DNA from: an uncultured Armatimonadetes bacterium
GTDB lineage: Bacteria > Armatimonadota > UBA5829 > DTJY01
Direction of reading: 5' to 3'
Length of the DNA stretch: 64,000 nt
NCBI GenBank assembly: GCA_963717145.1
Contig: OY970325.1
Coordinates: 2,208,001 to 2,272,000, forward strand
The number at the start of each line of letters is the position of its first letter. Position 1 is the first letter of the stretch. Position numbers and translations under genes: made by a program. Of this stretch, positions 2,497-14,321 are shown one piece after another. Below the pieces are notes generated by a model that was given only the letters and a program-made list of their open reading frames with translations, searched no databases and had not been told where the DNA came from.

Positions 2497-3972
2497 GTAA
2501 CAGTTCACGCTTGGGGATAACGAGTTTGATCAGGCGGGGAAGAGGACAGACTTGCCTGCGAGCAGTTGCCTGCAGGACTCGAGCATGTCCAGCCCTCGGA
2601 CGTGCCATGTGCCAAACAGACTCATGAGCGTCATCTTTGTCTCGGAACCCTTCGCGCTTCGTGTGCCTCCGCATACCTTGCGGGCGATCACACACGGCCT
2701 CAGCGCTCGTTCTGCGCCATTGTTGTCCGACGGTACTTCCGGGTACTCTACGAACATGAACAACTCATGCAAGCGATCCGTCAATCTCTTTGCCAGCACC
2801 TGCTGTGGAACCTCTAAGCCGACATACGGACCTGAGAGCGTCTCTACCTCTTCCTCGAAGAGCACTCGCTTCCACTTGCGAACCTCCGCCTTCTTGCTCC
2901 GGAACTTCTTTGCCTGATCGTAAACACCCTTCACCGCATCCGCCCATGATATGACGTCCGGGTTATCGGCGTTCTTCTCCTTCAGTTTGTGCAGTTCCCT
3001 GGCCAGATGTGCCCAGCATATCTGACGGTCTGCAACTACGGGGTTGTATCCGGCGTAGCAATCCGTTACCACCACCCCTTCGTAGTCGCCGCCTATCGTT
3101 TCCTTAGGTATCTCTCCGCTCCGACTCCGCCGGTAGATGAAGTATCGCACGTTCTTAGTGGAGAAGGTCCAGATGTATCCGTTGAGCCCGTCCTCTCTCC
3201 AGCCCGTCTCGTCTGCGTTTATGTATGGACTTCCGCGTACAAGCGATAGAAGTCCCTTCATCTCGCCTCTGCCACAGCCTGCCACCGTGTGCAATATCTC
3301 GCTTATCTCTCCCACAGAGAGATGAAGACGATACAGAGCCTTCAGCAACCCCTGTATCGTTCGCTTTGTCATACGGCCTACTGTCGAAAGATACGATATC
3401 AGGCTCATCAGGTTCACGCCTACTCGATGCTTGCCTACAACCTGGCTCGACAGGTCAACCTTCGGCACATGCGCCTTGCCACAGTATCCGCATCTTCTGG
3501 CGATGAATCTGTGCTCGACTATGTCCACAGGCACGATCGGTATATCAATAACCTGGCGGACTCTCTTTACCGTGCCCTCCGTGAGTGCCCGACCGCAGTC
3601 CGGACACTTCGAGTGCGCATGCTCGACTACACGGGTGGGGGTCTCCCGCCTGCGAACGAACGACTTCTGGCGCTTCTTTCGTTCGGCTGCCCGGCGCTCT
3701 TTGCGGTTCGGCTTGACCCAGTCAGGTATGGGGGTGGAACTGCCGCCACCCGAGAGCTTTGCCTTGAGATCCTCCAGTTCCTTGACGAGACGCTGGATCA
3801 TCTCCCGCTGCTCCAGGACAATGCCCACCAATTCTTCTCTTGTCAGACCGTCGAACTCTTCCACACAGGCATGTTCCACCCGCCCGGCCAAGGGTCCTTC
3901 CTATTGCAAGCCGACAATGTCGGAAAAACTCTCACTGCTCTCGCAAAATGATCCACAAGCCTGAACTGTTAC
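2497..3972 (-). mobile_element. IS66-family element, copy 2 (related, non-identical)
   Basis: Same terminal IRs; flanked by AGGTCAAG at 2489-2496 and 3973-3980. Confidence 0.9.
2530..3891 (-). CDS. IS66-family transposase
   Basis: Same motifs as copy 1 with a different N-terminus; start codon uncertain. Confidence 0.9.
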   Translation of the reverse strand: MAGRVEHACVEEFDGLTREELVGIVLEQREMIQRLVKELEDLKAKLSGGGSSTPIPDWVKPNRKERRAAERKKRQKSFVRRRETPTRVVEHAHSKCPDCGRALTEGTVKRVRQVIDIPIVPVDIVEHRFIARRCGYCGKAHVPKVDLSSQVVGKHRVGVNLMSLISYLSTVGRMTKRTIQGLLKALYRLHLSVGEISEILHTVAGCGRGEMKGLLSLVRGSPYINADETGWREDGLNGYIWTFSTKNVRYFIYRRSRSGEIPKETIGGDYEGVVVTDCYAGYNPVVADRQICWAHLARELHKLKEKNADNPDVISWADAVKGVYDQAKKFRSKKAEVRKWKRVLFEEEVETLSGPYVGLEVPQQVLAKRLTDRLHELFMFVEYPEVPSDNNGAERALRPCVIARKVCGGTRSAKGSETKMTLMSLFGTWHVRGLDMLESCRQLLAGKSVLFPA

Positions 3973-4799: not shown

Positions 4800-4831
4800 A
4801 TATGCAGTATTTAGTTAAGGAGTGGTCTGCC

Positions 4832-5071
4832 ATGAGTGCCAAGGTCATCAACATATCGCTTCCCGAGGATCTTCTTCGCGAGATCGATGAGGCAGCACGT
4901 TCCGACAGCCGAACGAGGAGCGAGTTCTTCCGTGAAGCGGCACGAATCTACATGGAGAGCCGTCGTTGGCGGAGGATCCGCAGTTGGGGCTCGAAGACCG
5001 CACAGGAACTCGGACTGACCGAGGACGACATTGAGCGGATAGTTCACGAGTACCGCAAAGGCGGGGTCTGA
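4832..5071 (+). CDS. CopG/ribbon-helix-helix protein (antitoxin-like)
   Basis: INISLPEDLLREID...RSEFFREA RHH pattern; RBS AAGGAG before ATG 4832. Confidence 0.8.
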   Translation: MSAKVINISLPEDLLREIDEAARSDSRTRSEFFREAARIYMESRRWRRIRSWGSKTAQELGLTEDDIERIVHEYRKGGV

Positions 5072-5106: not shown

Positions 5107-5994
5107 TTAGGCCCGGGGGTGCGATTCGCGGTAGACTTCCTTGAGGTGCTCGCGGGAGACGTGGGTGTAGATCTGCGTGGTGGCGATGTCCGCGTGGCCG
5201 AGCATCTCCTGGATCGAGCGGAGGTCCGCGCCGCCCTGCAGCAGGTGGGTCGCGAATGAGTGCCTCAGCGTATGTGGAGTGATGTTCCTGGTGATCCCTG
5301 CCCTGGCGGCATGCCTCTTGATGAGCTTCCAGAAGCCGACCCTCGACATCTTCCGCCCGCGGATCGTCAGGAACAGATACTCCGAGCTTCCCGATCGAGC
5401 ATATGCCGGCCTCGACTCCGCCATGTACCGCTCCACGTAACCAATCGCGACCTTCCCGAGCGGGACAATGCGCTCCTTCGATCCCTTCCCGAAGCATCGC
5501 AGGAAGCCGACCGAGAGGTTCAGATCGCTCAGCCGTAGGTTGATCAGCTCTGAGACGCGGAGACCCGAGGCATAGAGCGTCTCAAGCATCGCCTTGTCGC
5601 GAAGGCCGCCTTCCGTGCTCATGTCCGGCTGGTTCAGGAGCGCGGCGACCTCCTCCACATTGAGCACGCTGGGCAGCCTCTTCGCGCCCTTCATGCCTTC
5701 GATATCTGCCGTGAAGTCGGTATCGCTGAACCCCTCGCGGCAGGAGAACTTGCAGAACGTCTTGATCGCCGAGAGCTTCCGGCTGATGCTGTTCGGGGAC
5801 ATCGCCGCCTCACGCAGGCCGTAGAGGAACCCCTCGACGGTGCGCTCCGTGACCTCGCCGACCGACGATGCGCCGTGCTCGCCCGCATAGGTCGCGAACT
5901 GGGCGAGGTCGTGCGCATAGGCGGCCACCGTGTTGGATGACAGCCCTCGCTCGACGGTCAGATAGTCGATGAATGCCTGGATAGTCTCATCCAC
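5107..5994 (-). CDS. xerD: tyrosine recombinase XerD
   Basis: ERGLSSNTVAAY, LYASGLRVSE, GKGSKERIVP, HTLRHSFATHLL, LGHADIATTQIYTH; GTG start at 5994. Confidence 0.9.
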   Translation of the reverse strand: MDETIQAFIDYLTVERGLSSNTVAAYAHDLAQFATYAGEHGASSVGEVTERTVEGFLYGLREAAMSPNSISRKLSAIKTFCKFSCREGFSDTDFTADIEGMKGAKRLPSVLNVEEVAALLNQPDMSTEGGLRDKAMLETLYASGLRVSELINLRLSDLNLSVGFLRCFGKGSKERIVPLGKVAIGYVERYMAESRPAYARSGSSEYLFLTIRGRKMSRVGFWKLIKRHAARAGITRNITPHTLRHSFATHLLQGGADLRSIQEMLGHADIATTQIYTHVSREHLKEVYRESHPRA

Positions 5995-7696
5995 CGGCCG
6001 GCACGCTCCTTGCGAAGATGAGAATGTCCGGGCTAGCGTAGGACATGTCGTGAGGCAGGTCCCACTGCATCGGGAATCGGACGCCGAACAGCTCGGGCCT
6101 GCGGACGAACTGCTTCTCGATGCGATAGTCGCGCTTGAGAACCGCCATGTACCTCTCATAGTCGGGATCGTGAAGCCGCTTCCGATCCACGTACTCGAAC
6201 TCGGACAAGATGGCGTAGTCGGGCGCGGCCTGCTCGAAGAACTCGGCATTCCACTCCTTCCGTCCATCGACCGCGAAGATGTAGCCGGTCGATTCTTCCG
6301 CAGACGCCAGCCGGTCCATGGGGTCCACGCTCCCGAAGTCCGGGAGCAGTGGAGGCGTGTAGAACCAGGGCGTCGTCGGGAGCCCGATGGAGCTTCCGTC
6401 GGGCGTGTTCGACTTCACCCATGCCGCCGCCTGGTCGCGCGTGTCCTGTCGGACGAACAACGTGTCCAGGGACGCTGCATAAGCCGCTGTGTACCCGATC
6501 GCGAGCGCGGCGACCAAGCCGATGATGACTCCCGCCGCCTTCCCTCTCTCGCCACATTCAACCACAATCCTGGCGCCGAGGAGCAAGATCACCGGCAGCA
6601 GAGGAATGACGTATCGGGCAAAGCGCACCTCCGCGAGTCCGATCAGCACGTAGTATGCGGCGACAAAGACGATCAGCATCCAGTCCCGCGCGCCGGTCTC
6701 AGACATCGGCGTTTGGACCCGCCATGAAAGCAGCAACCGGGCGATCCCATTTCCCGTCGACCGCCTGAAGAGCGCATGGAGCACCCCGAGGATTCCGAGG
6801 ACCAGCAGCGCCGGACCGAGTCCCGGCAGGAGTGAGTGCATCAGGTGATAGAGAAACCCCGATCCCGTCCCGGTGAAGACCAACCCGTGGCCCGTGTCGA
6901 CATGAAGCACCTCGAACCTGAAGTCACGGACGAACGCCTGGGTGTTGATCAGCGCGCCCGGGCATCCGATCAGGAATCCCGCGATGGCGGACCCGATGCC
7001 TGAGAGCAACTTCGGCTGGAATGCCTGAAACATCGGCCTCCCCTGTGCGCTCGCAAGGTGGACTGCAATCAGTGACAGCAGGACGAGCCCGGCGTTGTAC
7101 TTCGTCGCCGCCGCGAAACCGGCGAACAACCCGGCGAGGATGTAGTTCCTCCACCGGCTGTCTTCAGGGATCCGGGCCGCATAGAGGAGCGATAGGACCA
7201 GGAAGAACGTCGCCGGCACATCGACGGCCATGAACTTCGAGTGCATGGCGTGGAGTGGAGCAATCGCCAATAATGCCGCCGCCAGCAGCCCGACACGCCT
7301 GCCGTACATACGCCGTCCGAGCGCGTACAGCAGGTAGACGGTCAGGATACCGAGTGCGACCGCGATGATCCGTCCCGTCATGTAGACCTTGGCGAACTCG
7401 TTGATGTGCGCCATCAGATCGCCGCTGAGGTCGATCGCACCGGCCATCATTGCCACGTTGATGCCGATATTCACGAGGTAGATGTACAGCGAGCCGTAGT
7501 TGTAGAAGCCGGGATCGAACTGCCCGCTGAGGATGTCCACGTTGGTCGCGGCGTTGAGGACGAGAGTCTCGTCGGGGTGGTACGAAAAGAAGTGCGAGAT
7601 GGTCGGCAGTCCCCAATGGAGACCCCAGATACGGAGTCCCGCTGCGACCGCCAGGATGATCAGTATGAATGCGAGCGTGCTACCTGATCTTCTCAA
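5987..7696 (-). CDS. polytopic membrane glycosyltransferase (GT-C, PMT/ArnT-like)
   Basis: HPDE after TM1, many TM helices, ATKYN, RYVIPLLP. Confidence 0.75.
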   Translation of the reverse strand: MRRSGSTLAFILIILAVAAGLRIWGLHWGLPTISHFFSYHPDETLVLNAATNVDILSGQFDPGFYNYGSLYIYLVNIGINVAMMAGAIDLSGDLMAHINEFAKVYMTGRIIAVALGILTVYLLYALGRRMYGRRVGLLAAALLAIAPLHAMHSKFMAVDVPATFFLVLSLLYAARIPEDSRWRNYILAGLFAGFAAATKYNAGLVLLSLIAVHLASAQGRPMFQAFQPKLLSGIGSAIAGFLIGCPGALINTQAFVRDFRFEVLHVDTGHGLVFTGTGSGFLYHLMHSLLPGLGPALLVLGILGVLHALFRRSTGNGIARLLLSWRVQTPMSETGARDWMLIVFVAAYYVLIGLAEVRFARYVIPLLPVILLLGARIVVECGERGKAAGVIIGLVAALAIGYTAAYAASLDTLFVRQDTRDQAAAWVKSNTPDGSSIGLPTTPWFYTPPLLPDFGSVDPMDRLASAEESTGYIFAVDGRKEWNAEFFEQAAPDYAILSEFEYVDRKRLHDPDYERYMAVLKRDYRIEKQFVRRPELFGVRFPMQWDLPHDMSYASPDILIFARSVPAGG

Positions 7697-8249
7697 CCTG
7701 CGCTCCCGGAGATGGCATGCACATATACCTCTGGATCAGCAGGAATATCCCGATCGCGAGCAGGACGTCCCCGATGCTGAGGACCGTGGTAAGTCTCGGA
7801 ATCGCGATGGGAATAATATCCGTCAAGGGTTTCAGCCGTGTTTCCGGCGTCATTATAGCATGACGGGCAGCATCTATGCGCTCGAGGTAGTCCAGCATCC
7901 CGGCAGTCTTCGCCGCCCATCGGCTTACGGGCATCGTTCCGCCGTTCACCGTGAGCGCCAGGAAGTTGAGGAACGAGCCGATGCCCAGGAGTTTCATCTC
8001 GCGAATGTGCAGATTGACGGCGATCACCCCGAGAAGCACAACGTACAGAAGGACGTTCAGAGTGCGCACCACCGTTCGGATGAGATCCTCATTGTGAGTA
8101 CGGTAAGTCAGGATCGTCGCGGCGGCGAAGAATATCAACGGGATGGCGAACACATAGGCGCCGCGGAAGGGGATGCGGCCCAGGTTGGCCAGTCTGCCCT
8201 TCCTGACAAGCCCCACGATAACGGCGAGCAGCGCAGCCTCAACGTTCAT
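7680..8249 (-). CDS. DUF5317-like membrane protein (putative peptidase, see findings)
   Basis: LNFLALTVNGGTMPV, LTDIIP and SIGD motifs; about 5 TM segments. Confidence 0.75.
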   Translation of the reverse strand: MNVEAALLAVIVGLVRKGRLANLGRIPFRGAYVFAIPLIFFAAATILTYRTHNEDLIRTVVRTLNVLLYVVLLGVIAVNLHIREMKLLGIGSFLNFLALTVNGGTMPVSRWAAKTAGMLDYLERIDAARHAIMTPETRLKPLTDIIPIAIPRLTTVLSIGDVLLAIGIFLLIQRYMCMPSPGAQVEKIR

Positions 8250-8935
8250 GACGCCTCCGCGTCCAATCTGTGACGCTTCTGCAGCACTCTCAGGAACGCC
8301 TCGACGACCTCCGGGTCGAATTTCTCCCCGGCCGATTTCTTGAGTTCGGCTACTGCGCGTTCCTCATCCATCCGTTCGTGATAAGAGCGCTCTGACGTCA
8401 TGGCGTCATATGCCGTGGCGACGGCGAGTATCCGAGCGCCGAGCGGAATCTCGTTTCCCGCCAATCCGTCGGGATAGCCGGATCCATCCCATGCCTCGTG
8501 ATGATGGCGGATGAACGGTGAGATCTCTCTGAGGAAGGCTACCTGCTTGACGATCTCCTCTCCGATGGCCGAGTGCGTCTGTAACTCACTCATCTCTTCG
8601 GAAGTAAGTCTCTCCGGCTTGTTCAGTATGGAGTGAGGCACGCGGATGTTGCCCACGTCCTGAAGGAACGAAGCGTATTCGAGGTCCTTGCCCATCTTCT
8701 TCGGCAGCCCCATATGCCCGGCGATCGCGGCGGCATACTCGGCCACTCGCTCACCATGTCCCACGGCCTTCAGGTCCTTGGTCTCGACCGCCCGCGCGAG
8801 GGTGAGCAGACTCCTGCGATACGCCCGTCCCATCCTACGAGGCAAGTGGACGTAGGAATACAGCGCGGCAACTACGGTTGCGGCTAATGCTATCGCAAAG
8901 GCGGGCGATTTCAGCAGTTCCAGGAAGCTACCCAT
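8246..8935 (-). CDS. HD-GYP domain protein with one TM helix and a degenerate HD motif
   Basis: GHGERVA, LQDVGN (canonical LHDIGK), HHHEAWDGSGYP. Confidence 0.85.
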   Translation of the reverse strand: MGSFLELLKSPAFAIALAATVVAALYSYVHLPRRMGRAYRRSLLTLARAVETKDLKAVGHGERVAEYAAAIAGHMGLPKKMGKDLEYASFLQDVGNIRVPHSILNKPERLTSEEMSELQTHSAIGEEIVKQVAFLREISPFIRHHHEAWDGSGYPDGLAGNEIPLGARILAVATAYDAMTSERSYHERMDEERAVAELKKSAGEKFDPEVVEAFLRVLQKRHRLDAEAS

Positions 8936-10286
8936 TGTCGCTCTCCTGTTTCGCCGCCATGACGGTGAGGAATGCCTTGACGACGCGTGGATCGAACTGG
9001 GTGCCGGCGCCGTACCGCAGTTGATCTATGCCGTCGTCGATGCTCTTGGGCTTCCTGTCCTTGTTGTATTCGCGCATTTCACCTGTCATCGCATCGAATG
9101 CATCAGCGGCGGCAATGACTGCTGCTTCGATAGGTATCTGCTTCTCCGAGAGCGCATCCGGATATCCCCTGCCATCCGGACGCTCGTGATGCCCCCTGAC
9201 CCATGGCACTATGCACTCCAGGTACTGCATCTGGGTAAGGATCTCCGCTCCGCGCGCCGGATGCTGCCTGATCATCTCCCAGTCGTCGGGGGACAACTGG
9301 CCGCTCTTGTCGAGTACCACCTCGTCGACTCCGACTTTCCCGATGTCGTGAAGCAGGCCGGCATCCTTGATGTACATCAGCGACTGCACGGGAAGCTGCA
9401 TCTGCCTCGCGATCCGCTCAGACAGGTCGGCAACCCGCTCCAGATGACCCTTGGTGTACAGGTGATGGTGCTGAATGTATGTGCCGAGCGCGGTGATCGT
9501 CTCTCGGTACGTGTTCACGTATGTGACGTGCAGGTTCAATGCCTGTCGGGCAACGAAGAACGGGATGATCAGCAGCAGTATCCCCCACGGACCATATCGT
9601 ATGTAGAGCGAGACGAACAGCGTCGCGAACGGCACGCTTACGAACAGGTCGGGGAACGACCACTTGAGGTTACGCTGGGCCGAGACCCTCCAGGGCTCAT
9701 TCTCGCCGAGACTTGTTCCAGTGGCACAAAGCAGTGCGGTTGTGACGCTGTATATCCCGGCCCAGAGCAGCAAGTACAACACGAGTTGGATGTCCGGACC
9801 CGAACTGGTGAGCGCCGGACTGAGGAACGGCCCCCCGGCAACGACGTACACCAGCGAGGCAGCCGCCAGCGCGATCACGTGGTTCGCGTCATTGTAGAGG
9901 ACCAGCGGAGCCAACCATCTGAACGGCGTTCCCCACTGCGTGATGAACGGTGCGATCAGAATGGGAATCGTGCTGACGACGATCGTGGCCGCTGAATGAT
10001 GGCTCAGGAACATGCCCAGGACGACGGGAACGGTGACAGTGACCTCGATGTTGACATCCGGGAGTTTGGTGGGGAAAAGCTCGGTGAGGAAGATGACGCC
10101 CAGGAAGAAAAGCCATTCCCATACGAACGAGCGGTCGCGAAGGAGGAAGTACACCGCGACAAAGAACATCCCCGCTCCGATGACGGAAACCACGCGAGAA
10201 TAGACTGCGAATCTCGACGAAAATCTTCGCAATGGAGAATGCCTTGAACTTATTAGGCCGGAATCGGCAGCAAGCTCTCCAGTCAA
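8928..10286 (-). CDS. multi-TM sensor fused to an HD-GYP phosphodiesterase
   Basis: About 7 TM segments, then GHLERVA, LLHDIGK, HHERPDGRGYP; start codon uncertain. Confidence 0.87.
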   Translation of the reverse strand: MTGELAADSGLISSRHSPLRRFSSRFAVYSRVVSVIGAGMFFVAVYFLLRDRSFVWEWLFFLGVIFLTELFPTKLPDVNIEVTVTVPVVLGMFLSHHSAATIVVSTIPILIAPFITQWGTPFRWLAPLVLYNDANHVIALAAASLVYVVAGGPFLSPALTSSGPDIQLVLYLLLWAGIYSVTTALLCATGTSLGENEPWRVSAQRNLKWSFPDLFVSVPFATLFVSLYIRYGPWGILLLIIPFFVARQALNLHVTYVNTYRETITALGTYIQHHHLYTKGHLERVADLSERIARQMQLPVQSLMYIKDAGLLHDIGKVGVDEVVLDKSGQLSPDDWEMIRQHPARGAEILTQMQYLECIVPWVRGHHERPDGRGYPDALSEKQIPIEAAVIAAADAFDAMTGEMREYNKDRKPKSIDDGIDQLRYGAGTQFDPRVVKAFLTVMAAKQESDNG

Positions 10287-10322
10287 AACCGGAGAGCGGC
10301 CGTCCTAGGTCGCTCTAGGCGC

Positions 10323-10409
10323 CTATGGGGGCGGCCAGTACTTCGGGAACGCACCTGAGCTGAGTACTAACGCAGCCAGGGCTAGCAGCACTTTGACTAA
10401 GGTCTTCAT
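10323..10409 (-). CDS. 28-aa small peptide MKTLVKVLLALAALVLSSGAFPKYWPPP (putative signal precursor)
   Basis: Below the ORF-track cutoff; RBS AAAGGGG 9 nt before ATG; cationic N-terminus, hydrophobic core, short aromatic/Pro tail. Confidence 0.75.
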   Translation of the reverse strand: MKTLVKVLLALAALVLSSGAFPKYWPPP

Positions 10410-10557
10410 TTAGGTCAACCCCTTTCGTGTGGTGAGAATAATGCCCGTCGTCGCTAAAAGACAGACAATTTCACCGCTCCGCTCGGGTTGTTTGGATTCG
10501 CTTGTGTTTCGCGGATGCGACCCCTCAGCTGCTGCCGATCGCCGGCCTAAATTGTGT

Positions 10558-11214
10558 TTACTCTTCGATCGCCATACCGAGTCGTCGGTTAATGGCGTCT
10601 AGTGTAGCATTCACCACCGCTTTCCATAAATCCTGCTTTACGATTGCTGTGCCGGCAAGATAGTCCTCGCCCCTCGCAGTTATCATGTTCACGAGCACGA
10701 CCACAATGCTTCTACCGGACAGGGTTACCGAGGTATCCAGGTCCTCCAGGACGAGCATTCCGTCGGATCCCTGGCAGTTTTCGAGAGCGCGCAGAGTGGC
10801 GGTTGCAATCAGGCGCAACTGGTTATGGGACGAGCTGTGACCGGCTGCGCTGCCCGTGTAGATGTCCTCACCACGGATCAGTCGGACCATGGCTTCGGCT
10901 TTGGTTCCGTTGAGGGAGATGTGCACGTCCGAAAACTTGAGCCGCGAATCGCTGAACCGAAACTGCTTGCCGTTCTGCGTCTGAGCGACGCTGACGATCT
11001 TGTGGTCCAGCTCGAAGCCGTACTGGGCCATGAGCGCGGATTCGACATCCCGCACGACCTGCTTGGGGACTCTGCCCCCATCCGCCAGTACGTGCAGCTC
11101 TTCAAGCTCTCCGTCCTTGCCGGCTACGGCACACACGGAGATGACGCCTCTGAGAGAGCGGATGACCGCCTCAACCTCCATGGCTGATACTCGTCTGGGT
11201 GCTTCCATGTCCAT
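10558..11214 (-). CDS. conserved two-domain hypothetical protein
   Basis: Clean ORF with RBS right after pheT; ELHVLA...PKQVVRDVESAL N-domain; C-domain ending AVVNATLDAINR resembles a LeuA-allosteric-like fold (inference). Confidence 0.75.
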   Translation of the reverse strand: MDMEAPRRVSAMEVEAVIRSLRGVISVCAVAGKDGELEELHVLADGGRVPKQVVRDVESALMAQYGFELDHKIVSVAQTQNGKQFRFSDSRLKFSDVHISLNGTKAEAMVRLIRGEDIYTGSAAGHSSSHNQLRLIATATLRALENCQGSDGMLVLEDLDTSVTLSGRSIVVVLVNMITARGEDYLAGTAIVKQDLWKAVVNATLDAINRRLGMAIEE

Positions 11215-11222
11215 TCCTCTCG

Positions 11223-13250
11223 CTAACGGAACGATGCCGCCAGGTTCTTGACCAGGTAATCCCTGATCTGACCCATGCGTTCGTCTACCTCTTCGTCTCG
11301 AAGAGTCCGCTCCCGCGAACGGAAGATGATGCTGAAGGCCAAGCTCTTTTGTCCGGCAGGAAGAGGCTGGCCCTGGTAGTAATCGAACAGGCTGGCGCTT
11401 TCAAGTAAATCGCCGGCTCCGTTGACGATCGCCTCGTGTACACACTGGTATGGAAGGCTATCCGGCACCACGACAGCGAGGTCTCTCGAACTCGCCGGGT
11501 ACCGTGAAATAGCTCTGTATTTCTTATCGGCGCGAGTCGCGTCCATCAAGAAATTGATATTCAGTTCGAACGCAGATACTCTTGAGGCTAAGTCCAGCGA
11601 TTTGGTCCGGGCGGCGCTGATCTCGCCTATGACACCAAGCTCGGTATCTCCCAAGACTATCTTTGCACCCCTTGAGGGATGAAAACCGGGTATCGAGTCG
11701 GAGCGGAGGGTCACATCCGTGATGCCGATCCGCTCGAGGAGCGCCTCCAGGATGCCCTTGAGGAGGAAGAAGTCCGCCTGCAGGGAACCCTTGTCGACGT
11801 TCCATGCCTTGTCCCACGCGTTGCCCGTGATGGCGACGGCGACGTTGCCGTTCTCGATGATGGTTCCTTGGTCGTCGGGCTGAAACACCTGCCCGATCTC
11901 GAAGACTCCGAGGTCTCTGACGCCTCTTCCTGCGTTATATGATAATACCGCCAAAAGGCTTGGTGTTAAACCGCTTCTTAGGTAACCAAGCTCCTCGCTG
12001 AGAGAATTCCTCAGCGGAGTCTGGGCCGAATGCTCGTCGGGCGGTGTCATTGTGCTCGTGACGACTTCCTGCAGGCCGCATGAAATCAGCAGCTCGGTGA
12101 TCTCTCGGTCGAGTCTGACGTGATCGCTGTCGTGTCCCTGCATGCTCTCACCACATGGGAGAGTCTCGGGTATGTTCTCGTAGCCGTGTATGCGACCGAC
12201 TTCCTCGATGAGGTCCACCTCGCGCTCGATGTCGGCACGGAAGGTCGGAACCTGCACCCTGATCTGACCGTTGCGGCTGACTTCCATCCCGAGCCGGGAG
12301 AGGTAATCCGCCACCTGCTCGTCACTGAGATCCATGCCCAGCAGCATCCTGGTGCGCTCCGGTCGGATGGTGAGCGCGATGGGCTCGATCTTCTTAGGAT
12401 AGACGTCGATGACGCCGCGAGCGATCGTGCCGCCTCCCGTCTCCTGGATGAGCTGGGACACCCGGTCGAGTGCCTGGATCGTGAGGTTCGGATCCACACC
12501 CCGCTCGAATCGGTATGAGGCCTCGGTGGACATCCCCAGTTTGCGGGCGGTGCGACGGATCGAGAGCCGGTTGAAGTGAGCCGACTCGATCAGGACATTC
12601 TTCGTGCGGGAATTGACTTCGGAATCGGAGCCACCCATGACCCCGGCGATCGCGACCGCATGTCTCGGGTCGGCGATGACGAGCATATCGGGGTCGAGTG
12701 TCCGCTCCTCGCCGTCGATCGTGGTGATCTTCTCGCCGGCCGCCGCCTGTCTCACGATGATGTGATGGTCGGCCAGGAGATCGGAGTCGAAGGCGTGAAG
12801 CGGCTGGCCGAGTTCCAGGAGGACATAGTTGGTGGCGTCGACCACATTGTTGATCGGGCGCATCCCGGCGGCCAGGAGTCTCTTCTGCATCCATCCAGGC
12901 GAATCGGTGATGGTGGTGCCCGTGATGACTCGCGCGGAGTACCTGGGGCAGTTCACGGGGCTGGTGATCTCGACCTTCGCGAGGCTCTCGGCAGCCGGTT
13001 CACCCTCGACGAGCGATATCTTCGGCTCGCCCAGAGGGATGTTCAGGAGCGCCGATGTTTCCCGTGCGACGCCGACCATGGAAAGCAGGTCCGATCGGTT
13101 AGGCGTCACGTAGGTGACGAAGACGGATTCTCCTTCCAGTTGGCGTATCTCTTCGACTTCCAGCCCTGCCATGGTAAGGCGATCGGCAAGCGCTTGGTCA
13201 GCAAGCGTGAAATCGCTATATTCTCTTAGCCATGCCACAGGCACGAGCAT
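11223..13250 (-). CDS. pheT: phenylalanine-tRNA ligase beta subunit (short form)
   Basis: TPNRSDLLS, ELGQPLHAFD, RFERGVD, DLIEEVGRIHGY, C-terminal anticodon-binding domain. Confidence 0.95.
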   Translation of the reverse strand: MLVPVAWLREYSDFTLADQALADRLTMAGLEVEEIRQLEGESVFVTYVTPNRSDLLSMVGVARETSALLNIPLGEPKISLVEGEPAAESLAKVEITSPVNCPRYSARVITGTTITDSPGWMQKRLLAAGMRPINNVVDATNYVLLELGQPLHAFDSDLLADHHIIVRQAAAGEKITTIDGEERTLDPDMLVIADPRHAVAIAGVMGGSDSEVNSRTKNVLIESAHFNRLSIRRTARKLGMSTEASYRFERGVDPNLTIQALDRVSQLIQETGGGTIARGVIDVYPKKIEPIALTIRPERTRMLLGMDLSDEQVADYLSRLGMEVSRNGQIRVQVPTFRADIEREVDLIEEVGRIHGYENIPETLPCGESMQGHDSDHVRLDREITELLISCGLQEVVTSTMTPPDEHSAQTPLRNSLSEELGYLRSGLTPSLLAVLSYNAGRGVRDLGVFEIGQVFQPDDQGTIIENGNVAVAITGNAWDKAWNVDKGSLQADFFLLKGILEALLERIGITDVTLRSDSIPGFHPSRGAKIVLGDTELGVIGEISAARTKSLDLASRVSAFELNINFLMDATRADKKYRAISRYPASSRDLAVVVPDSLPYQCVHEAIVNGAGDLLESASLFDYYQGQPLPAGQKSLAFSIIFRSRERTLRDEEVDERMGQIRDYLVKNLAASFR

Positions 13251-13271: not shown

Positions 13272-14321
13272 CTAGAACTGTCTAAGGAAACGAACGTCGT
13301 TCTCAAGGAACAGACGCAGATCGTCGATCGCGTACCGAAGCATCGGCATTCGTTCGATGCCGAGGCCGAACGCGAAGCCTGTGTACTTCTCCGAATCATA
13401 GCCGAACCGCTCCAGTATGTTCGGATGGATCAAACCGGCTCCGCCGAGTTCCAACCAGCCGCTCGACTTGCAGATGGCACAACCTGCGCCCCTGCACATC
13501 ACGCAGCTTATGGCGACCTCGGCTCCCGGCTCGACGAACGGGAAGAAGTCCGGGCGGAACCGCACTCGAGTGTCGTCGCCGAACATCAACCGCGCGAAGT
13601 TGGCCAGGGTGCCCTTCAGGTCGGCCATGCTGATGCCTTCGTCGACTGTGAAGCAGTCGACTTGGTGGAACGTATGCGAATGCGTTGCGTCCACTGCCTC
13701 GTATCGGAAGCAGCGGCCAACGGTGGCGATCCTCAACGGCGGCTGGCGCGTCTCGAAGACACGGCCCTGAAGCGCCGTAGTCTGCGTCCTGAGCAGAAGG
13801 TCGTCGGTTACGTAGAACGACATCTGCTCGTCCATAGCGGGATGGTCTTCCGGGTAGTTGAGCGCTTCGAAGTTGTAGCGATACTGCTCCAACTCCGGGC
13901 TCTCCATGATCTCGTAGCCCAGCCCGACGAAGATCTCTTTGACGCGGTCGATCGTGGTCGTAAGGAGGTGCCGCCTGCCGGTTCTGAACAACCGGCCGGG
14001 CAGAGTCACGTCGACCGCCTCCTGCGTGAGGCGGCGGCCGTCCTCCTGTGCCTGGATGTCCTCGATCTTGGTCTCGAGCCTTGCCTCCAGGTGGTTCTTG
14101 AGTTCGTTTGTGAGGCGGCCGAACTCGGGCCTCAGATCGCGGGGTAACTCTCCTACGGATCGCGAGAGTTCTGTTACCTTGCCCTTGCGCCCGAGATACT
14201 TGACGTCGACGTCTTTCAGATCGGTGGAGGAAGCGGCCTGGTCGATGGCCTGCTCCACCTCAATCCGCAGGGCGTCCAGTTGCTCCTGCACCGATCCAAT
14301 ATCTTGTAACCTCTCAGGCAT
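13272..14321 (-). CDS. pheS: phenylalanine-tRNA ligase alpha subunit
   Basis: LLRTQT, FHQVD, FRPDFFPFVEP, GFAFGLGIER. Confidence 0.96.
   Translation of the reverse strand: MPERLQDIGSVQEQLDALRIEVEQAIDQAASSTDLKDVDVKYLGRKGKVTELSRSVGELPRDLRPEFGRLTNELKNHLEARLETKIEDIQAQEDGRRLTQEAVDVTLPGRLFRTGRRHLLTTTIDRVKEIFVGLGYEIMESPELEQYRYNFEALNYPEDHPAMDEQMSFYVTDDLLLRTQTTALQGRVFETRQPPLRIATVGRCFRYEAVDATHSHTFHQVDCFTVDEGISMADLKGTLANFARLMFGDDTRVRFRPDFFPFVEPGAEVAISCVMCRGAGCAICKSSGWLELGGAGLIHPNILERFGYDSEKYTGFAFGLGIERMPMLRYAIDDLRLFLENDVRFLRQF

Follow-up and report, generated by a model that had tools for sequence, protein, structure and literature searches.

A 28-codon open reading frame (ORF) in the genome of an uncultured Armatimonadetes bacterium is a real gene, and it belongs to an uncharacterized, multiphylum gene set with a conserved gene order and a conserved RNA structure. 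The ORF lies in a window of 64,000 nucleotides (nt) (GenBank assembly GCA_963717145.1, contig OY970325.1, forward-strand positions 2,208,001 to 2,272,000) from a host genome that is one 5.37-Mb contig; positions given without a locus name are those of this window. On the minus strand between pheST and xerD, the ORF list reads as a gene for a 218-amino-acid (aa) protein (here called p218), the 28-codon ORF, a membrane HD-GYP gene, a short HD-GYP gene, a DUF5317 gene, and a PMT_2 gene (Table 1). An initial annotation had proposed five co-directional genes for quorum-like signaling here, in which the DUF5317 protein, acting as a membrane peptidase, releases an aromatic peptide that the membrane HD-GYP protein senses. 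All five genes do lie on the minus strand where they had been placed. Three features had been missed: the ORF is surrounded by structured RNA, the sensor domain of the membrane HD-GYP protein is of the MASE9 type, and the HD pair of its shorter HD-GYP neighbor is degenerate.

The reading that we prefer, and to which we give an even chance, is that the ORF encodes a membrane-resident micro-protein that partners the MASE9 sensor domain, the DUF5317 protein, or both. We favor it because the helix and the small-residue motif of the micro-protein are conserved rather than its tail, because no exporter, modifying enzyme, or recognizable peptidase is encoded in the cassette, and because the tail has only 4 to 5 residues in most phyla.

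The small ORF is a conserved gene

The ribosome-binding word AAAGGGG stands 9 nt 5' of the ATG of the small ORF, and the earlier proposal that this is a genuine gene with a good ribosome-binding site holds up in related genomes. Same-class loci, of which 20 were fetched around DUF5317 homologues, keep the whole order pheT-p218-ORF-HD-GYP-HD-GYP-DUF5317-PMT_2-xerD; two are cut by contig ends and two are without HD genes, leaving 16 evaluable. The ORF is present in all 16 of these loci with a whole p218-to-HD-GYP interval (14 by tblastn and 2, L042 and L044, by ORF listing), is 28 to 30 codons long in the same-class copies, and is always accompanied by the ribosome-binding word CGAAAGGGGTTGA. 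Variable alignment columns at codon positions 1, 2, and 3 number 9, 7, and 23 in its own family and 19, 12, and 27 over 15 sequences. The micro-protein is the best-conserved protein of the module, with a within-family identity of 82 to 96%, compared to 60 to 86% for p218, 46 to 75% for the HD-GYP proteins, and 40 to 70% for DUF5317. A similar ORF also occurs in four of four other-class Armatimonadota loci with p218 and HD-GYP; one other-class locus was unreadable through masked bases. The window ORF ends in TAG, as do those of 13 of the 14 relatives compared, always after Pro-rich codons, and the ORF of the remaining relative (L039) is extended; Bacillota versions use all three stop codons.

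Neither Pfam nor NCBIfam has a family for the window peptide or for any other version of the micro-protein. The exact window sequence has no entry in a 15-billion collection of predicted proteins. Four of four short versions have none, and a 43-residue form is listed there as "hypothetical protein."

The cassette recurs across phyla

An alignment search of one-genome-per-species contigs with p218 returned 577 relatives. The cross-phylum loci discussed here are the best 80 of these 577, from Armatimonadota, Bacillota (Desulfosporosinus, Thermincola, Symbiobacterium, Syntrophomonadaceae, and others), Sumerlaeota, Atribacteria, and more; four of them end too early to evaluate. Most of the fetched loci share the order p218, a gap, a MASE9-type HD-GYP gene, sometimes a short HD-GYP gene, and then DUF5317. 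We scanned the gap between p218 and HD-GYP for ORFs of 18 to 50 codons with a basic N terminus and at least 11 hydrophobic residues, and such an ORF was found in 67/71 loci versus 2/71 on the opposite strand. A looser reading of the scan recovers the four missed loci and three loci without a downstream match, placing an ORF directly 3' of p218 in 74 of the 76 evaluable loci. This gene order, conserved across phyla, links the small ORF to the membrane HD-GYP and DUF5317 genes, as had been supposed. In one Armatimonadota genome (L083; G154:C54, ~2550-3600), p218, a 25-codon ORF (MGKLTAALLAILSLVLAGGARVMWP), and DUF5317 follow one another without an intervening HD-GYP gene, which ties the peptide to DUF5317 and p218 and not to the enzyme alone.

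An HD-GYP enzyme with a MASE9 sensor domain and a degenerate partner

Both HD-GYP proteins match Pfam HD_5 (Table 1). The 452-aa protein is a predicted cyclic di-GMP (c-di-GMP) phosphodiesterase with an intact HD-GYP domain, in which H313, D314, H366, H367, G374, and Y375 are invariant over 35 sequences and E368 and P376 are nearly so. Its N-terminal membrane domain is assigned to MASE9 through its relatives: 22 of 35 aligned family members match PF20972 (best E value, 2.9e-11), the window protein itself gives no match at E ≤ 0.1, and its Atlas features stand at 0.92 to MASE9 clusters. The start codon in the ORF list, the TTG at 10286, falls inside a hairpin loop. A second TTG at 10232 has AAGG 9 nt upstream and directly follows the 3' arm of the closing helix of the RNA element described below; it is probably the true start, because the N termini of homologues (MRR.S..F..Y) fit it.

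The 229-aa protein has a single N-terminal hydrophobic helix and keeps the GYP motif, with the His of the HD pair replaced by Gln (Q92). All 17 orthologues have Q, E, A, G, R, or M at this position, and the Asp is invariant. Although the HD_5 family match is strong, the protein lacks an intact metal-binding HD pair and is probably no normal hydrolase.

MASE9 proteins have, to our knowledge, no described input signal. The available part of the preprint by Galperin and Chou that defined the domain describes it on Thermotoga maritima TM1467 as a polytopic N-terminal domain with short, poorly conserved periplasmic loops, proposes ligand binding within the membrane, and names Streptomyces venezuelae HdgA as the sole studied MASE9 protein (10.1101/2021.11.05.467447). 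S. venezuelae hdgA-hdgB mutants had no detectable phenotype according to the accessible portions of two accounts (PMC6205966, PMC13232838).

Membrane residence versus a secreted peptide

Bacillota micro-proteins have 24 to 29 residues (e.g., MSKLFKAITVLVTLVLAGGAMYKI). Across 39 aligned homologues from several phyla, the distance from the N-terminal Lys to the GGA is free of indels in 36, whereas the tail varies in length and sequence; the transmembrane segment is conserved across phyla, and the tail is not. The small-residue motif that ends the hydrophobic helix reads SSGA in the window and AGGA elsewhere. In 14 Desulfosporosinus-type genes, the residues at codons 12 to 20 are kept via 2 to 4 synonymous codons, and tail positions 21 and 24 take six and five different residues, respectively. 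A hydrophobic segment of fixed length with near-invariant residues appears unlike an ordinary signal peptide, and its high conservation would argue against a mere targeting signal. The aromatic cargo AFPKYWPPP that had been singled out in the first description does not extend beyond its class: Bacillota have 4 to 5 residues after the conserved GGA, variable between congeners. A lipoprotein was also considered and rejected, as a Cys occurs before GA only in some families, with Thr at -1.

The micro-protein could instead be a Sec-type precursor that is cleaved after SSG (AGG elsewhere) to leave a short C-terminal peptide outside the cell membrane, where MASE9 would sense it as a quorum-like signal. 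The sequence does have a Sec-type layout, with an n-region (K2 and K6), a hydrophobic core of 13 to 16 residues, and small residues at -3 and -1; moreover, the tail is the part that varies between close relatives, with an aromatic and a basic residue kept, and the gene directly precedes that of a membrane sensor. However, the product would be only 4 to 5 residues in most Bacillota and 9 here, with no sequence conserved across phyla, and the presumed signal region is the most conserved part, of fixed length and with a near-invariant Gly at -1. Such a Gly and such a fixed, conserved signal region are unusual for signal peptidase I sites. Searches of Pfam and NCBIfam found no exporter, modifying enzyme, or peptidase family in the cassette, and the poor loop conservation reported, and the in-membrane binding proposed, by the MASE9 authors in the available part of their preprint also count against this reading (10.1101/2021.11.05.467447). 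We consider this explanation distinctly unlikely, and nothing shows that the peptide acts as a secreted quorum signal.

When the peptide was co-folded with the MASE9 domain and DUF5317, the score was 0.17 against a mark of 0.32, which speaks neither for nor against contact; the peptide is below the calibrated length of the tool.

DUF5317 is an orphan membrane family

The DUF5317 protein matches PF17248 with 119.8 bits against a cutoff of 25, and this is the sole meaningful Pfam match in 50 of 50 family members. Its AlphaFold2 (AF2) model consists of helices and a small beta region (predicted local distance difference test [pLDDT], 94.9; predicted template modeling score [pTM], 0.88). Ten columns are invariant over 50 sequences, including N95, N102, M106, P107, D144, S158, G160, and D161. 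The role of peptidase that the initial annotation gave to this protein found no backing: none of the 50 members matches AgrB or a peptidase family, no relative in the PDB was found by sequence or by Foldseek fold comparison (best E value, 2.1), and a search of the Atlas found nothing outside the family itself. We found no paper, supplements aside, that includes DUF5317 and none that describes this cassette.

DUF5317 might still be a new kind of intramembrane hydrolase (with its invariant Asp residues in LxDIIP and SxGD) that has the micro-protein as its substrate, in which case the processing would be the signal and no quorum sensing would be involved. D144 and D161 are invariant in the 50 sequences, the second in an xGD motif. 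An xGD motif with an invariant Asp may recall the GxGD aspartyl proteases. The peptide also co-occurs with DUF5317 where HD genes are missing (L083). Nevertheless, no solved protease shares the fold of the confident model, no family match was found, and 13 loci hold DUF5317 alone, without the peptide, p218, or the leader, so DUF5317 needs none of these three. We judge a substrate role to be very unlikely.

The small ORF lies within a conserved RNA structure

A structured RNA element of about 300 nt encloses both the leader and the small ORF, and its structure is conserved. The region from 10240 to 10560 folds with a minimum free energy (MFE) of -139.2 kcal/mol (z = -6.4). In 14 class relatives, the helix that closes the element has GC-to-AU double changes in 4 to 6 sequences at several pairs; covariation is also seen in an internal hairpin. 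On either side of the leader and ORF, 46/79 loci can form an ungapped helix that scores at z > 3 versus shuffles, with quite different sequences. Within the leader lie the invariant tandem AGCGRAGCG, a hairpin whose loop shows UAGCGR, and the ribosome-binding site. The tandem, invariant in A1, A8, and A9, has a counterpart in 78/79 loci, and AGCGR occurs 3.75 times per 130-nt leader versus 0.28 and 0.29 times in coding controls and 0.11 times in the reverse complement, an enrichment of about 13-fold, with 1 to 6 copies per leader. Two hairpins follow the ORF stop, ahead of the closing-helix 3' arm, and the loop of the first (10304-10319) displays a further AGCGA; the sequence of this hairpin region is not conserved in relatives.

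A covariance model built from 16 Armatimonadota leaders picks up leaders in Bacillota and Sumerlaeota loci, giving a 31-sequence alignment that was fitted to the model and therefore favors structure. In this alignment, 90.8% of cells pair, and the covariation score is 0.596, a value that none of 500 shuffles attained; slid partners scored no higher than 0.167. All five pairs of hairpin P2 are changed on both sides in 9 to 17 of the 31 sequences, with 91% of cells paired and an invariant AGCG in the loop. RNAalifold also models a helix that would sequester the Shine-Dalgarno (SD) sequence AAAGGGG by pairing its GGG with a CCC that immediately precedes the AGCGR tandem. In this helix 1, 97.7% of cells are paired, and UA stands for CG in 2 to 3 of the 31 sequences. 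No structure emerged from RNAalifold for 44 leaders aligned plainly with MAFFT, owing to misalignment of the stems. Searching 98 sources (1 Mb) with a second covariance model (R2) gave 50 matches at E ≤ 0.01, every one of them at the leader position before the ORF, and zero hits in the 13 loci with DUF5317 but without p218. The host genome has one strong copy of the leader, with the next match at 19.9 bits and an E value of 0.01 (G000:C1:1046059-1046146, L175).

No Rfam 15 family matches the element, whether in the window (E ≤ 10) or in five other loci (E ≤ 1). This result, together with the protein-level selection on the ORF, led us to drop tmRNA, 6S RNA, and RNase P as identities for the RNA. 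Contigs from RNA libraries of four studies fall on the element (10318-10538, 10285-10521, 10329-10542, and 10263-10492; lengths, 214 to 282 nt), and three libraries of three studies match at an identity of at least 99% (214 to 240 nt). Because such libraries can hold DNA, these contigs are weak evidence that shows the presence of the sequence and does not prove a discrete transcript. In the stretch compared, contigs of the four RNA runs cover nothing outside 10263 to 10542, which says nothing about transcript ends.

Two further explanations concern this RNA. The first is that the small ORF is a regulatory upstream ORF, for which the act of translation matters and not the product; stalling at a WPPP-stop end, for example, could control the RNA fold and the HD-GYP operon in this class. 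The ORF does sit in a structured RNA, with 90 nt separating it from the HD-GYP start, and PPP precedes the invariant TAG in the ORFs of 13 of the 14 relatives. Pro-rich ends slow translation termination. However, purifying selection acts on the whole amino acid sequence and is strongest in the hydrophobic helix, Bacillota versions have no prolines, and no terminator-like site was found between the ORF and the HD-GYP gene; we regard this explanation as highly unlikely.

The second is that the leader is a riboswitch for a small molecule, such as c-di-GMP, its breakdown product, or another metabolite, and not a protein site. Invariant unpaired nucleotides beside covarying helices, the modeled helix over the SD sequence, and an operon that encodes a c-di-GMP enzyme all fit this idea, which could be combined with a membrane-resident micro-protein. 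On the other hand, no riboswitch family appears within the Rfam limits given above, runs of three to five AGCGR repeats look more like sites for an oligomeric protein, and the copy number varies between leaders. A riboswitch is unlikely in our view, though worth keeping in mind.

Some loci differ in detail around the element. Fimbriimonadales loci (L103 to L120; e.g., L110, 2459-2590) have the 43-residue form of the micro-protein (MKRWLILMAMLVAMMSVASAKRVYYPHKWDDP...) and a different closing helix (CAGGCAAGGCAAGC/GCTTGCCTTGCCTG), and DUF5317 is absent within the fetched loci of this group. One relative (L040) has GGTTAGA-like tandem repeats with an inverted copy directly 3' of the element.

p218 and the proposed mechanism

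p218 always lies directly upstream of the RNA element. The window copy matches no Pfam or NCBIfam family, and 6 of 16 homologues match PF08502 (LeuA_dimer) below or near the threshold (best E value, 2e-5), with no such match for the window copy. Its AF2 model (pLDDT, 90.1) has an N-terminal domain of the type alpha-beta-beta-alpha-beta and a C-terminal domain of the type (beta-beta-beta-alpha)x2, like the allosteric domain of LeuA. Foldseek returned LeuA (1sr9_B; E value, 4.6e-6), the LiCMS regulatory domain (3f6g_A; TMt, 0.59), and, more weakly, proteins with a double-stranded RNA-binding domain (dsRBD). The invariant residues of p218 are mostly basic or polar, and relatives carry the name "predicted nucleic-acid-binding protein" in one source. 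p218 would be the best candidate for a factor that reads the leader.

For a membrane-resident micro-protein, we envisage N-terminal Lys residues on the inside, one hydrophobic helix, the small-residue motif, and a short tail on the outside. Acting in the membrane as a partner or input subunit, it would adjust the rate of c-di-GMP hydrolysis in the way that sensor kinases are modulated by small membrane proteins. Its synthesis could be set by the structured leader, with its AGCGR repeats, its hairpin, and the helix over the ribosome-binding site, and the closing helix around the leader and ORF may mark a separately stable piece of RNA. A bolder version would make the AGCGR leader and closing helix a new class of regulatory RNA that p218 reads through a LeuA-type ligand pocket, so that a metabolite acts through the RNA on a universal micro-protein, the missing membrane input of MASE9 HD-GYP and DUF5317 proteins, and from there on c-di-GMP in Armatimonadota, Bacillota, and other phyla; this is speculation that we would not expect to hold.

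Several observations weigh against the membrane-resident reading and its mechanism. Residence in the membrane is itself deduced from the sequence, and there are only 16 hydrophobic residues from K6 to K23, which, with small residues at -3 and -1, would also fit a cleavable Sec signal. Tail positions differ between close relatives in the manner of pherotype peptides. DUF5317 stands without the peptide, p218, or the leader in the 13 loci mentioned above, and two loci (L111 and L169) have p218 without the small ORF. The SD-sequestering helix covaries little, and the pair counts come from the model-fitted alignment. Finally, in structure p218 best matches a regulatory domain that binds amino acids and not one that binds RNA.

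Gene neighborhood

The coordinates of the module and its boundaries are given in Table 1. The reading frames of the last four genes overlap by 4 to 17 bases (8928-8935, 8246-8249, and 7680-7696).

Table 1. Features of the p218-to-PMT_2 module and its boundaries in the 64,000-nt window
Feature	Position	Strand	Basis or remark
pheST	13272-14321 and 11223-13250	-	Upstream boundary of the module
p218, 218 aa	10558-11214	-	Cytoplasmic; AF2 model; no Pfam or NCBIfam match
Structured RNA element, ~300 nt	10253-10550	-	Folding z score and covariation; encloses leader and small ORF
Closing helix of the RNA element	5' arm ~10527-10550; 3' arm ~10253-10271	-	MFE fold and double changes
Leader segment spanning the modeled SD-sequestering helix	10419-10490	-	SD AAAGGGG at 10419-10425 and CAACCC at 10485-10490
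Tandem AGCGR motif GAGCGGAGCGG	10474-10484	-	Most conserved leader sequence
Leader hairpin P2	10442-10467	-	Loop UAGCGA at 10451-10456
Micro-protein gene, 28 codons plus TAG: MKTLVKVLLALAALVLSSGAFPKYWPPP	10323-10409	-	Predicted single-pass membrane protein, N terminus inside
Two hairpins between the ORF stop and the closing-helix 3' arm	10274-10319	-	Sequence and MFE structure
MASE9-HD-GYP, 452-aa ORF	8928-10286 in the ORF list; 8928-10232 with the second TTG start	-	HD_5, E value 3.4e-28
Short HD-GYP, 229 aa	8246-8935	-	HD_5, E value 6.9e-43
DUF5317, 189 aa	7680-8249	-	PF17248, E value 1.3e-34
PMT_2 (GT-C type) glycosyltransferase, 569 aa	5987-7696	-	PF13231, E value 1.1e-19
xerD	5107-6267	-	Downstream boundary of the module

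PMT_2 follows DUF5317 in the Armatimonadota class relatives, also in loci without HD genes, and it was not seen beside the module in the Bacillota loci examined; judged from these neighborhoods, it is an operon member in Armatimonadota only. It still adjoins DUF5317 in Armatimonadota families without HD-GYP, p218, and the peptide (L086, L087, L089, L045, and L046), and DUF5317 may have a second, envelope-related link. Beside xerD on the opposite strand, an 89-aa ORF (4802-5071, plus strand) has an N terminus that reads ribbon-helix-helix-like.

Known RNA families occur near the cassette in some other loci. In Desulfosporosinus fructosivorans (L132), a c-di-GMP-I-GGC riboswitch (10814-10900; 76.8 bits; E value, 1.7e-16) lies 2 kb downstream of the cassette and precedes another short HD-GYP-like gene (11461-12003). 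Subthreshold Rfam matches to the cspA thermoregulator lie 1 to 4 kb upstream of p218 in four Bacillota-type loci (L126, 2314-2662; L116, 3519-3885; L145, 4762-5078; and L172, 1212-1513) and probably mark a nearby cold-shock gene.

Implications and comparison with known systems

The cassette bears on the inputs of MASE-type sensors, for which the sole studied MASE9 protein gave no phenotype in the accessible portion of that work (PMC6205966). To these sensors it adds a cross-phylum micro-protein missed by gene callers, an orphan membrane family without a PDB fold match, a partner protein, and a covarying RNA without an Rfam family. The input side of MASE9 HD-GYP enzymes thereby becomes open to simple genetics, and annotating the micro-protein and the RNA would correct several hundred genomes or more.

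MgrB and SafA are small single-pass membrane regulators of PhoQ in Escherichia coli and Salmonella. There, as in our reading of the cassette, the gene for a tiny hydrophobic protein adjoins that of a membrane sensor or shares its regulation, and the protein would act on the sensor within the membrane. However, there is no sequence relation, the putative partner here is MASE9-HD-GYP and/or DUF5317 rather than a histidine kinase, and the gene lies inside a structured RNA.

Agr quorum sensing, which the initial annotation invoked, is built from the AgrD precursor, the AgrB peptidase, and the AgrC kinase. A small hydrophobic precursor gene adjoins genes for polytopic membrane proteins in both cases, but the likeness goes no further: the cassette has no AgrB match, no conserved Cys for a thiolactone, and no histidine kinase or response regulator, and its receptor candidate is an HD-GYP protein. 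Operons under c-di-GMP-I or -II riboswitches likewise have a structured leader before c-di-GMP turnover genes, whereas the leader described here has no Rfam family, carries AGCGR repeats, and has a coding ORF enclosed by a long-range helix.

T. maritima TM1467, the MASE9 prototype, resembles the window protein in having a polytopic N-terminal domain fused to HD-GYP, whereas the window protein falls below the Pfam threshold for MASE9. A similar layout is that of hdgA-hdgB of S. venezuelae, where, in the available portions of its accounts, a membrane HD-GYP protein with intact motifs is likewise followed by a degenerate HD-GYP protein in one operon (PMC6205966, PMC13232838). HdgB as described there has lost the GYP residues and has several transmembrane helices, whereas the short protein of the window keeps GYP, has lost the HD His, and has one helix. 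Those same portions mention no micro-protein, DUF5317, p218, or RNA leader, all of which accompany the HD-GYP pair in the window.

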